From a virus (Duplodnaviria > Heunggongvirae > Uroviricota > Caudoviricetes): 8,558 bases of DNA. Position 1 is the first letter of the stretch; the number at the start of each line of letters is the position of its first letter. The notes below the pieces were generated by a model, which saw nothing but the letters and a program-made list of their open reading frames with translations, was not told where the DNA came from and searched no databases. Below, piece by piece: positions 1-8,558 of the stretch. A program made the position numbers and the translations under genes. The stretch lies in the IMG/VR virus record IMGVR_UViG_2690316276_000007. One strand, written 5' to 3'.

Positions 1-32
1 CTGGTTGTCTGGAGATTCAGGGGGCCAGTCTA
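1..32 (-). mobile_element. IS2 (IS3 family) terminal end, left inverted-repeat terminus only; the element body lies upstream of the window
   Basis: Reverse complement of 1-32 reads TAGACTGGCCCCCTGAATCTCCAGACAACCAG, matching the IS2 left end as I recall it at 31 of 32 positions. The segment is GC-rich against the AT-rich phage DNA that starts at 33. Confidence 0.75.
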
Positions 33-33
33 G

Positions 34-5375
<5,342 letters not shown>

Positions 5376-5388
5376 TAAGGATTAGATA

Positions 5389-5712
5389 ATGAGAGTATTT
5401 AAAGATACGCAGTGTGATGCGTTTCTAAATGCTTTCGGTCAGTCTATCCAAACTTGTACGGGAAGTACTTTTACAGGAATAGTAGAAGTACTTCCCGTTT
5501 CTATTGAGGCGGCAGGTGGATTTATCGAAAGCGTGGAAACATACCTAACAATCAGAAAGGACGATCTAATAACCGCAAACGTGGCAATTGGTACAGTACT
5601 AATCATTGATGGTGTAAACCAGACAATCTATAACATTGAAGATGATCTATCAGGTATGGTTAATTGCTATTTCCGTACTTCTGCTGGTGCTTCATTTGCA
5701 GAGGACTACTAA
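5389..5712 (+). CDS. Head-tail joining / tail attachment protein (lambda gpFII-like)
   Basis: AAGGA 7 nt before the ATG. Pattern GIVEV...GG.IE...L.I..DDL...IG.VL.IDG...IYNIEDD resembles lambda gpFII (GVFDD...RGDTLTIGEENFWVDRVSPDD). Synteny directly after the capsid gene. Confidence 0.55.
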   Translation: MRVFKDTQCDAFLNAFGQSIQTCTGSTFTGIVEVLPVSIEAAGGFIESVETYLTIRKDDLITANVAIGTVLIIDGVNQTIYNIEDDLSGMVNCYFRTSAGASFAEDY

Positions 5713-5713
5713 T

Positions 5714-6106
5714 ATGATGTTAGTACAAAAAGTACGGAATACGATGAAGCAGCTTATCAATGCTACTAAGAATCTGACAGTATCACGTGATGTTGATGTA
5801 TTTGAACAAATTGCTTTTGATTACTCATTAACGAGTTTAAGTTTCAGCAATGAACGCCGGGCAGGTAACTTTGCAATTCAGTATCTGATTTCCCCTAAAC
5901 CAGAATCAGGTAATACAGCCCCATCCATCACTTATGATCAGATTATTAGTACTTTTGATAAAGAGAAAACTTCAGCATTCAGTGATGCAGGTTTAATAAT
6001 GCTTTCGTGTTCTTATGAACAATCCGATATTGTCACAGATCCTATAACTGGCTCGGTTTCCCTATCCTTTACGATAAATATTCAAGTTACGGAAAAGACA
6101 AGATAA
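5714..6106 (+). CDS. Putative tail terminator (weakly lambda gpU-like), 130 aa
   Basis: GAGGA at 5701-5705 lies 8 nt before ATG 5714, 2 nt after the previous stop. Length and weak pattern (R near residue 8, VFE/VFD near residue 30) resemble lambda gpU (131 aa). The ORF-track start at 5636 overlaps the upstream gene and was trimmed. Confidence 0.45.
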   Translation: MMLVQKVRNTMKQLINATKNLTVSRDVDVFEQIAFDYSLTSLSFSNERRAGNFAIQYLISPKPESGNTAPSITYDQIISTFDKEKTSAFSDAGLIMLSCSYEQSDIVTDPITGSVSLSFTINIQVTEKTR

Positions 6107-6123
6107 CTAAAAGGATATAAAGG

Positions 6124-7332
6124 ATGAGTGATATTTTCTCAGGAAGAGAATTATCAGTACAGTATAATGCTGATATTGGTAACAGAACACCACAGGGAGC
6201 AGGCAATGTAGTAATTAAACAGATTAATACTTTTCCAACCTTAACAATAAATTCAGAAGCAAATAATTTTGAAACGTATGATAGTGATTACAGGACAGTA
6301 CTACTATCTGATAAATCAGTAGCACCATTTGATATTGTAGTTAACTACCTACCTGATGATCCTACACATCAATTCTTGGATAATGCCGCTAAGTCTCAGC
6401 AGCTTTTCCAGATCATCATTCAGTACCAGATGAATAAGGATGAAAATACCATTACTTATGCGATGGTGAATGGTTATATCACCTCTTATAAGTTGGACGG
6501 TGATAAAGGTTCAGTAGTAACCAAGGCATACAGTTTTGCCCCACATGATGTGATCGCACGTGCAATGACCATTAACGCACTATCGCCAATCTATCAGGGG
6601 GACTACGGTTTAGGTTCGAACACTACGGATGTACCTCAGTACTCACCATCAGTACCTACGGGTAACAGCTTCATCAAAGTACCATCATCTCAAGCAGGCA
6701 ATCCTGCCGGGGCGGATCTGATGGGAGTAGGGCTTGTAGATGGCACTACTGTAAGTTCTCTTGCGATGACAAAGACGGGTACTCTAAGTATCTATGCAAA
6801 GAACGCTACAACCGCCTGGACACGCATATATACCGCTACACAGATGGACGGGCGATACGTACCCCTTACACGTACCATCAACGGCCATGCACTCACGGCC
6901 AATTTAGTACTGAACAGTGAAGATACAGGTTCAGTACCTGATACACGTACTGTGAATGGTAAGCCTCTAAGTGAGGATGTAGTACTTACCAGTACTGATA
7001 CCGGCTCTGTACCAGATACACGGACAGTTAATGGTCATGTACTCAGTGAAGATATAGTACTGAGTAGTGAAGATACAGGTTCAGTACCTGACACGCGTAC
7101 AGTGAACGGTCATGTACTTAGTGAAAATGTAGTACTGAGTAGTGAAGATACAGGTTCAGTACCTGATACACGTATGGTCAACGGTCATGTACTCAGTGAG
7201 GATGTAGTACTTACCAGTACTGATGTTGGCTTAGGGAAGGTTACAGATGATGCCCAGCTTACGATAGCAGGTAATCTAAGTGATCTGGGGGACGTGGAAG
7301 AAGCACGTATTAACCTTGAAGTGGCACACTGA
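6124..7332 (+). CDS. Major tail tube protein-like (lambda gpV-like N-domain) with C-terminal tandem fibre-like repeats; 3' end interrupted by IS911, which supplies the last codons and the stop
   Basis: AAGGA 8 nt before the ATG. N-terminal ETYDSDY...QLFQIIIQYQ resembles the gpV tube domain (ESYDDSY...ALLAWF). Five 25-aa repeats at 6868-7242. The terminal codons (gaa gtg gca cac tga) lie inside the IS911 left end. Confidence 0.7.
   Translation: MSDIFSGRELSVQYNADIGNRTPQGAGNVVIKQINTFPTLTINSEANNFETYDSDYRTVLLSDKSVAPFDIVVNYLPDDPTHQFLDNAAKSQQLFQIIIQYQMNKDENTITYAMVNGYITSYKLDGDKGSVVTKAYSFAPHDVIARAMTINALSPIYQGDYGLGSNTTDVPQYSPSVPTGNSFIKVPSSQAGNPAGADLMGVGLVDGTTVSSLAMTKTGTLSIYAKNATTAWTRIYTATQMDGRYVPLTRTINGHALTANLVLNSEDTGSVPDTRTVNGKPLSEDVVLTSTDTGSVPDTRTVNGHVLSEDIVLSSEDTGSVPDTRTVNGHVLSENVVLSSEDTGSVPDTRMVNGHVLSEDVVLTSTDVGLGKVTDDAQLTIAGNLSDLGDVEEARINLEVAH
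6868..7242 (+). repeat. Tandem in-frame 75-bp repeats x5 (25-aa units, consensus TRTVNGHVLSEDVVL(S/T)S(E/T)DTGSVPD) inside the tail gene
   Basis: Units start at 6868, 6943, 7018, 7093 and 7168. Protein sequence is conserved with synonymous DNA differences between units; the fifth unit diverges at its 3' end. Confidence 0.9.
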
Positions 7333-7352
7333 ATTTGGCCACCTGAACAGAG
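7317..7352 (+). repeat. IS911 left terminal inverted repeat (IRL, about 36 bp)
   Basis: TGAAGTGG...GGCCACC...AGAG aligns imperfectly with the reverse complement of the right end visible at 8530-8558 (shared GGCCACC core and AGAG). Confidence 0.8.
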
Positions 7353-7388
7353 GTGATATGCTCACCTCAGAACAACACAGGTGCTCCA

Positions 7389-8558
<1,170 letters not shown>

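Follow-up and report, generated by a model that had tools for sequence, protein, structure and literature searches.

This report concerns an open reading frame (ORF) of 402 amino acids (aa) at positions 6124-7332 (+ strand) of an 8,558-bp stretch of phage DNA (IMG/VR record IMGVR_UViG_2690316276_000007; hereafter, the window). The window is the entire contig CXBB01000165.1 of assembly GCA_001254295.1, a short draft contig that ends in a repeat. Its phage-derived part (1-7318), which is the head end of the late operon of a lambda-like siphophage, is 99.97-100% identical to a segment of the Shigella sonnei chromosome (L001), and the remainder is a copy of the insertion sequence (IS) IS911. The ORF lies directly downstream of a 130-aa tail terminator gene (5714-6106, + strand) and is preceded by a plausible AAGGA ribosome-binding site. 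The original prediction, made from the window alone, had described it as a gpV-type tail tube protein with fibre-like C-terminal repeats, either a tube protein displaying adhesin repeats or a tube-fibre gene fusion. The explanation that we consider probable is that it is a prophage fibre gene cut by IS911, whose intact product carries a paralogue of the tail tube protein that mounts an accessory lateral fibre in the tail tube.

The reading frame and its interruption

The first 150 aa of the ORF (6124-6573, + strand) form a tube-protein-like domain. Residues 2-150 match positions 14-162 of PHROG 158, annotated as 'major tail protein', with an E-value of 6.8e-15, and structure comparison found in the N-terminus the features of the TTP/Hcp-type tail tube fold (i.e., a beta-sandwich, a flanking helix and a long hairpin). 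This domain is followed (6574-6858, + strand) by a linker predicted with low confidence (approximately aa 151-175) and by a conserved small beta domain (approximately aa 175-245), both delimited from conservation and from the secondary structure and predicted local distance difference test (pLDDT) of an AlphaFold2 (AF2) model. The original prediction regarded the N-terminal 240 aa or so as tube-like; the fold was recovered, but the tube domain covers only about 150 aa of that region. The small beta domain contains the conserved motifs GNSFIKVP and TAWTRIYT, and residues 161-249 have no match in Pfam or PHROG. Its only occurrences apart from the tube-like domain are in fragments or in proteins cut at the N-terminus (e.g., P0017, P0226, P0241, P0260 and P0035), and in a library of 1.84 billion proteins it was never seen joined to a different N-terminus.

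The five VNG..LSEDVVL repeats noted in the original prediction are present as five tandem 25-aa shaft units (VPDTRTVNGhvLSedvVLtSeDTGS) at aa 246-370 (6859-7233, + strand, in the register of the protein). Their order is VPLTRTINGHALTANLVLNSEDTGS, three units of the form VPDTRTVNG..LSE..VL.S.DTGS and VPDTRMVNGHVLSEDVVLTSTDVGL. At the DNA level, Tandem Repeats Finder reports a 75-bp unit in 4.2 copies (6905-7219, 79% matches, score 371), an array far beyond chance. The repeats match PHROGs for tail fibres, tail proteins and head fibres, two more PHROGs whose function is unknown, and proteins annotated as tail fibres in Vibrio and Aeromonas phages. The other motif pointed out earlier, NLSDL..ARINL, was also found, as NLSDLGDVEEARINL, at aa 384-398 (7273-7317, + strand), where it occupies the last phage-derived codons. 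With a family profile, this region matches PDB entry 9zd7, 'short tail fiber gp92' (E 1.5e-9).

No Big_2, FN3 or Ig family and no similarity to the gpV family were found for the protein in Pfam and profile searches, and the assignment to the gpV type gave way to a PF08813/phrog_158-like one. Of the two outcomes that would have refuted the original prediction, an N-terminus without the tube fold and repeats matching a known Ig-like family, neither was obtained. The only Ig-related match is a borderline and partial one to GldM_2nd (PF21601; 26.5 bits against a cut-off of 24.4), which covers profile positions 22-75 of 98 and spans two of the 25-aa repeats. In homologues, the same family is matched below threshold (E ~0.005), and the match was judged to be driven by the repeats. 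A repeat unit of 25 aa is too short for an Ig domain.

The gene does not end naturally at 7332. From 7317 to the end of the contig at 8558, the + strand carries IS911, of the IS3 family, with its left end, TGAAGTGGCACAC, starting at 7317 and its orfA/orfB transposase genes identified by the Pfam domains HTH_Tnp_1 and rve. When 7250-8558 was compared by megablast with E. coli genomes, annotated IS911 copies matched at 99.5-99.9% nucleotide identity over 1242 bp, the matches beginning at window positions 7311-7317. Both the terminal sequence and the orfA/orfB organisation are thus present, as in an ordinary copy, which is incomplete through the contig end; taking the length of IS911 as 1250 bp, which we assume, the window would stop 8 bp short of the right terminus. 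Sequence identity with the fibre gene of S. sonnei extends only to 7318. Since IS911 starts at 7317, codons 399-402 (EVAH) and the TGA stop (bases 7318-7332) are IS sequence. Because the assembly breaks off within a repeat at the contig end, no target-site duplication is visible. An identical IS911, in the opposite orientation, lies inside the tape-measure gene of the S. sonnei segment (L001 14502-15743).

An intact allele exists in IMG/VR (L018/L019). It is 100% identical in DNA to the window up to the IS junction and continues to 883 aa, with a Peptidase_S74 domain at aa 774-822 (34.1 bits against a Pfam cut-off of 22). By comparison with this allele, the ORF at 6124-7332 is the 5′ 45% of a longer gene (398 of 883 codons), cut by IS911 after codon 398. 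The ORF of the window ends at that codon without Peptidase_S74 and, as it lacks both the tip and the chaperone, is non-functional. The window copy is a pseudogene, a dead fragment in an IS-riddled, defective S. sonnei prophage. In itself it is mundane, one more IS-inactivated gene in a decaying prophage. The comparison with intact homologues that the original prediction had suggested covered the 883-aa allele with its Peptidase_S74 domain and family members of 560-1445 aa. The fibre-like character that had been attributed to the C-terminal repeats is borne out by their matches to tail-fibre PHROGs and by the Peptidase_S74 end of the intact protein.

The tube paralogue and the fibre family

The S. 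sonnei segment carries the remainder of the tail genes. There, the fibre gene is annotated as a 622-aa ORF and a 286-aa ORF, and these are followed by the genes for a 157-aa tube protein, a pair of tail assembly chaperones, an IS-broken tape measure, a pb9-like distal tail protein and a gpJ-like tip protein. The 157-aa neighbour passes the Pfam threshold for PF08813 (Phage_tail_3; 34.0 bits against 24.2), has weak matches to lambda-type tube families, and matches phrog_158 at positions 12-156 (E 5.8e-19), that is, in the same region of the profile as the N-terminal domain (N-domain) of the fibre protein.

The two proteins are also similar to each other. By BLASTP, residues 3-139 of the ORF are 31% identical to the adjacent 157-aa protein (E 2e-20), and an hhalign comparison of the N-domain profile with that of the tube family covers residues 6-141 of the tube protein, with a probability of 99.8% and an E-value of 2.2e-30. 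As this alignment contains a single 3-residue indel, no element of the tube protein has been lost from the N-domain, including the stretch at aa ~40-65, the presumed inter-ring hairpin, in which both proteins have the motifs ETYDS.Y...L...KS and VNYLPD. The N-domain shares 25-39% identity with the tube protein of its own phage in all 29 loci compared, and mean identities in these loci are 59% between tube proteins, 44% between N-domains and 30% between N-domain and tube protein. Judging by these similarities, the N-domain and the tube protein are the products of an old duplication in which both copies were retained. In every related locus examined, a separate and more conserved PF08813 tube gene of ~150 aa lies downstream of the fibre gene and immediately upstream of the genes for the tail assembly chaperones and the tape measure. 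Consequently, the product of the gene studied here is not the major tail tube protein of the phage.

Family scans used the 250-aa N-terminal module as the query. Eight loci were found in reference genomes (Scandinavium, Buttiauxella, Phytobacter, Enterobacter, Pseudocitrobacter, Escherichia sp. and Pseudescherichia) and 125 in IMG/VR, from which 80 were fetched. A single complete ORF of at least 500 aa (range 561-1445) was present in 78 of the 88 fetched loci, and the 71 distinct family sequences have a median length of 946 aa. An exhaustive HMMER search of 1.84 billion cluster representatives (50%-identity clusters) matched 141 proteins, approximately 100 of which are long (700-1563 aa) and matched over residues 1-250, while the matches of ~150 aa, at 22-36% identity, are true tube proteins. 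The family is spread over Enterobacterales prophages of E. coli, Enterobacter, Klebsiella, Salmonella, Serratia and Erwinia.

The gene order is common to about 38 loci, that is, to dozens of Enterobacterales prophages. It runs from the capsid gene through a ~106-aa stopper and a ~131-aa protein to the tube-paralogue fibre (561-1445 aa), and then to the ~150-aa tube protein, chaperones of 99 and ~119 aa, and a ~735-aa tape measure. A small or second fibre ORF sometimes lies between the tube-paralogue fibre gene and the tube gene. As this arrangement is conserved across Enterobacterales prophages, the tube-fibre fusion is genuine and ancient and not an accident, and of the two architectures considered in the original prediction it is the fusion that was correct. 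Downstream of the N-terminal module the family is variable: there are 0-9 VNG units and 0-4 NLSDL..AR.NL motifs per member, and the C-terminal end is S74-like in 48 of the 71 distinct members, with Phage_tail_C_2, gp37_trimer and Collar seen in others. The intact protein matches tail-fibre PHROGs with E-values of 1e-34 to 1e-37. In a divergent sub-family (L016, L017 and L096, 8001-12541), a 561-aa tube-paralogue fibre abuts a 951-aa ORF with overlapping stop and start codons, which, by analogy, suggests a two-piece fibre such as the LtfA/LtfB of T5-like phages.

The components (tube fold, S74 fibre and IS911) are all known, and the family is conserved yet undescribed. Pfam has no family for the N-terminal module, and NCBIfam has none for the fibre, the terminator, the stopper or the W-like protein. 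PDB searches with family profiles of the N-terminal module, the terminator and the stopper gave nothing significant beyond the fibre motifs of 9zd7 and a weak match to lambda gpFII, the latter from the stopper. Full-text literature searching found no description of a tube-paralogue/fibre fusion; in the Milano paper, 'N-terminal tube domain' denotes a baseplate centrepiece and not a fibre. When the protein, the capsid and the tube protein were compared by tblastn with 50,697 phage records, only a distant and uncharacterised N-domain match in Escherichia phage DCP80 was obtained. According to these searches, the family has no curated family, structure or characterised cultured representative.

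The DCP80 record itself (PQ671644.1; L005) is of 141 kb and is classified in Straboviridae/Gaprivervirus, which are T4-like. Its positions 1-18530 hold a lambda-like siphophage head-tail module syntenic with the prophage (terminase, portal, protease-capsid, a 699-aa tube-paralogue fibre, a 745-aa second fibre, tube protein and tape measure), and the record may be chimeric or misfiled.

Proposed mounting of the fibre on the tail

The intact protein consists of the tube-paralogue N-domain, the small beta domain, a shaft made of variable VNG repeats and NLSDL..AR.NL motifs, and an exchangeable, receptor-binding tip that is usually followed by Peptidase_S74. Most probably it serves as an accessory lateral fibre that is incorporated into the tail by means of its tube-like domain. 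S74 domains are intramolecular chaperones, known from endosialidases and T5 pb1, which direct folding of the trimer and are then cleaved off, and they are a hallmark of trimeric fibres. The intact allele contains the sequence SGREFK, in which the Ser-x4-Lys spacing fits what we take to be the S74 catalytic dyad. In the mechanism that we propose, the S74 chaperone would trimerise the fibre and then be removed by cleavage, and the three tethered tube-like domains would take up places in the tube lattice, where they would form a specialised ring or half-ring, with two trimers completing a hexameric ring. The fibre would belong covalently to a tube subunit instead of docking on an adaptor, and its role would be that of an accessory lateral adhesin in addition to the central, gpJ-like fibre. 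Candidate locations for the ring are near the tip (as in T5 p140/TTMP), near the head by the terminator, or scattered along the tail.

It is possible, and we put this forward tentatively, that the family represents a new mode of attachment, in which a duplicated tube subunit fused to an S74 trimeric fibre polymerises into the lattice at a defined, possibly head-proximal, ring without adaptor or collar. If so, there would be two fibres per hexameric ring, and the problem of fitting threefold to sixfold symmetry would be solved within one protein. A tube-like domain that sits in the lattice would provide a compact covalent fibre mounting on a flexible tail, unlike the adaptor or collar systems solved for T5/DT57C, lambda and F-type pyocins. 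Such a mechanism would bear on the matching of threefold fibres to sixfold tubes, on the evolution of tail modules by tube-gene duplication and on host-range engineering.

Several observations weigh against the mechanism proposed. We infer incorporation into the tube from paralogy and fold alone, and some geometric arrangement would be required to fit a fibre that is trimeric to a ring that is hexameric. Confidence in the AF2 model is moderate (pLDDT 67.8; predicted template modelling score 0.49), and Pfam gave no tube family at E <= 0.1 either for the ORF or for its full-length homologues. The faster divergence of the N-domain (44% against 59% for the tube protein) could mean that it has left the tube lattice. 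Lastly, the frequent premature stops described below show that prophage maintenance, at least, does not require the protein.

Among the alternatives is the first of the two readings in the original prediction, here a major tail tube protein whose adhesin repeats would be displayed over the entire length of the tail, in the manner of lambda gpV with its Ig-like domain or of SPP1 gp17.1*. The tube fold and the phrog_158 'major tail protein' match of residues 2-150 would fit such a role, which we nevertheless regard as highly improbable. The separate, better conserved tube gene upstream of the chaperones and the tape measure is present in every related locus, the fibre gene has premature stops in several prophages whose neighbouring structural ORFs are of normal length, and an S74-chaperoned trimeric fibre on each tube subunit would be sterically implausible. 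Somewhat less remote, although still unlikely, is that the tube-like domain lies off the DNA channel, where it would dock on the exterior of the tube, on the terminator or on the neck, producing neck or collar fibres, or stack as a further ring by the distal tail protein like T5 TTMP/p140. In agreement with docking, the gene directly follows that of the terminator, the N-domain has diverged further than the tube protein, a tube-like ring (TTMP) is the site of fibre attachment in T5/DT57C (PMC10713586), and the distal tail protein of this phage family has a weak match, below the Pfam cut-off, to the B-domain of T5 pb9. By contrast, the nearly gap-free alignment over the whole tube domain, including the presumed hairpin (aa ~40-65), is better explained by lattice contacts that have been kept, and a canonical terminator is already present. 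An extra ring close to the tip is a sub-case of the lattice-borne fibre that we favour. The N-domain was also considered as a tail terminator bearing neck fibres; this was rejected, since the upstream 130-aa protein has a canonical terminator fold in its structure model and the N-domain is not needed for that function.

Two further alternatives are raised by the condition of the gene in different prophages. The IS911-cut allele was found in one contig only, and the common S. sonnei allele (P0001, 622 aa) in 15. Compared with the intact L018, the latter has a perfect tandem duplication of 165 bp (55 aa; L001 11273-11437) and a change from TGG (Trp) to TAG at L001 11867-11869, after which the frame continues; the annotated '622-aa' and '286-aa S74' proteins of S. 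sonnei are the two halves of one broken gene. Premature stops (TGA, TAA and TAG) also occur in the fibre genes of L007 (1149-3524), L008 (10001-13069), L036, L065, L074 and L081. Among 93 loci, approximately 8-9 are affected in this way; the structural ORFs next to the gene have normal lengths in L007 and L008. It could be argued that such stops are programmed and that readthrough yields short and long fibre isoforms (the short ORFs having 622, 462 and 559 aa), given that L001, L007 and L008 each have a single in-frame stop followed by an in-frame continuation of the fibre sequence with S74, and that the stop of L008 falls in the middle of a repeat unit. However, the TAG, TGA and TAA codons lie at non-homologous positions, the ORF is uninterrupted in 78 of the 88 other loci, and L018, otherwise identical, has TGG at the site of the S. 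sonnei TAG; readthrough is effectively refuted, and the stops are independent nonsense mutations. The proposal that the tube-fibre architecture is an artefact, either of assembly or of a fusion or deletion that happened recently and by accident while the prophage decayed, draws on the heavy damage of the S. sonnei prophage and on the nature of the window, a short draft contig ending in a repeat. For the architecture it is refuted, as more than 100 clusters drawn from many genera of Enterobacterales have long fibres headed by this 250-aa module, and the synteny there is identical and the separate tube gene intact. An assembly error is still conceivable only at 7317, where the fibre gene meets IS911. 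The fibre seems to have been repeatedly inactivated across prophages, and this recurrence would fit a dispensable aid to adsorption, by analogy with lambda Stf.

The closest solved analogue of the proposed arrangement is found in T5/DT57C, where a tube-like ring of TTMP (p140) inside the LtfC collar is the attachment site of the lateral fibres (PMC10713586). There, three proteins are involved (TTMP p140, LtfC p132 and Ltf/LtfA pb1), with the fibre retained non-covalently through a lasso inside the dodecameric collar, whereas here there is one polypeptide; no collar gene is evident at the loci of the family. T5 TTMP, which is trimeric, contains two tube sub-domains, in contrast to the one tube domain and small beta domain of the present protein. 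The TTMP gene adjoins that of the distal tail protein, while the fibre gene described here adjoins the terminator and tube genes, and no sequence similarity is detectable between the T5/DT57C proteins and this one.

Decorated tube proteins, such as lambda gpV (Ig-like), T5 pb6, SPP1 gp17.1* (FN3, by frameshift) and the tube extensions of lactococcal phages, also combine a tube domain with an outward C-terminal appendage that is thought to aid adsorption, and in a BFVD search tube + FN3 proteins align over ~250-300 columns. They carry, however, a single Ig/FN3 or carbohydrate-binding domain on the major tube subunit, whereas in the present family an S74 fibre of 400-1200 aa, presumably trimeric, is borne by a second, paralogous tube-like subunit. 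S74 fibres and spikes such as endosialidase K1F/endoNF, T5 pb1 and the GA-1 neck appendage end in a C-terminal Peptidase_S74 as the intact allele does, but have the usual adaptor-binding N-terminal domain in place of a tube-paralogue anchor. Finally, lambda Stf is, like the fibre described here, an accessory fibre of a lambda-like siphophage, dispensable and repeatedly inactivated by point lesions. Stf was split by a frameshift in laboratory lambda, and the genes of this family were broken by amber and other nonsense codons and by IS911. Stf differs in lacking a tube-like domain and in that its gene is placed after J.

The surrounding prophage

The genes upstream of the terminator belong to the head end of the lambda-like late operon. 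The large terminase gene, of the gpA type, is truncated at its 5′ end (73-1533): the Pfam match to GpA_ATPase begins at profile position 109, and the corresponding ORF (1-1533) lacks ~110 N-terminal residues. Next are a head-tail joining gene of 176 aa (1545-2075), a portal gene of the lambda family (2075-3583) and a gene encoding a fused S78 protease/HK97 capsid (3531-5375), whose ORF begins in a different frame and shares the last 53 nt of the portal ORF (3531-3583). The 614-aa combination of S78 protease and HK97 capsid in a single polypeptide (phrog_617) is the rule in this phage group. The last gene before the terminator is a further head-tail joining gene, a gpFII-like stopper of 107 aa (5389-5712, + strand), which has a weak Pfam match to Phage_attach (E 3e-4) and matches phrog_82, 'head closure Hc1'.

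The prophage is defective and unable to package DNA. The damage in S. sonnei comprises the truncated terminase, insertions of the IS110 family, IS66 and the IS3 family, and the tape measure gene broken by an IS. Transposase genes of the IS110 and IS66 families lie directly upstream of the terminase in L001. Rfam and tRNA scans of the window gave no matches, and megablast of 5389-7317 against complete E. coli genomes gave none; the S. sonnei copy of the element was located afterwards through protein identity. In L002 (1-8240), the chromosomal neighbours of the S. sonnei prophage are the ccmA-H operon for cytochrome c maturation, a gene for a response regulator and a fragment of an AIDA-like autotransporter.

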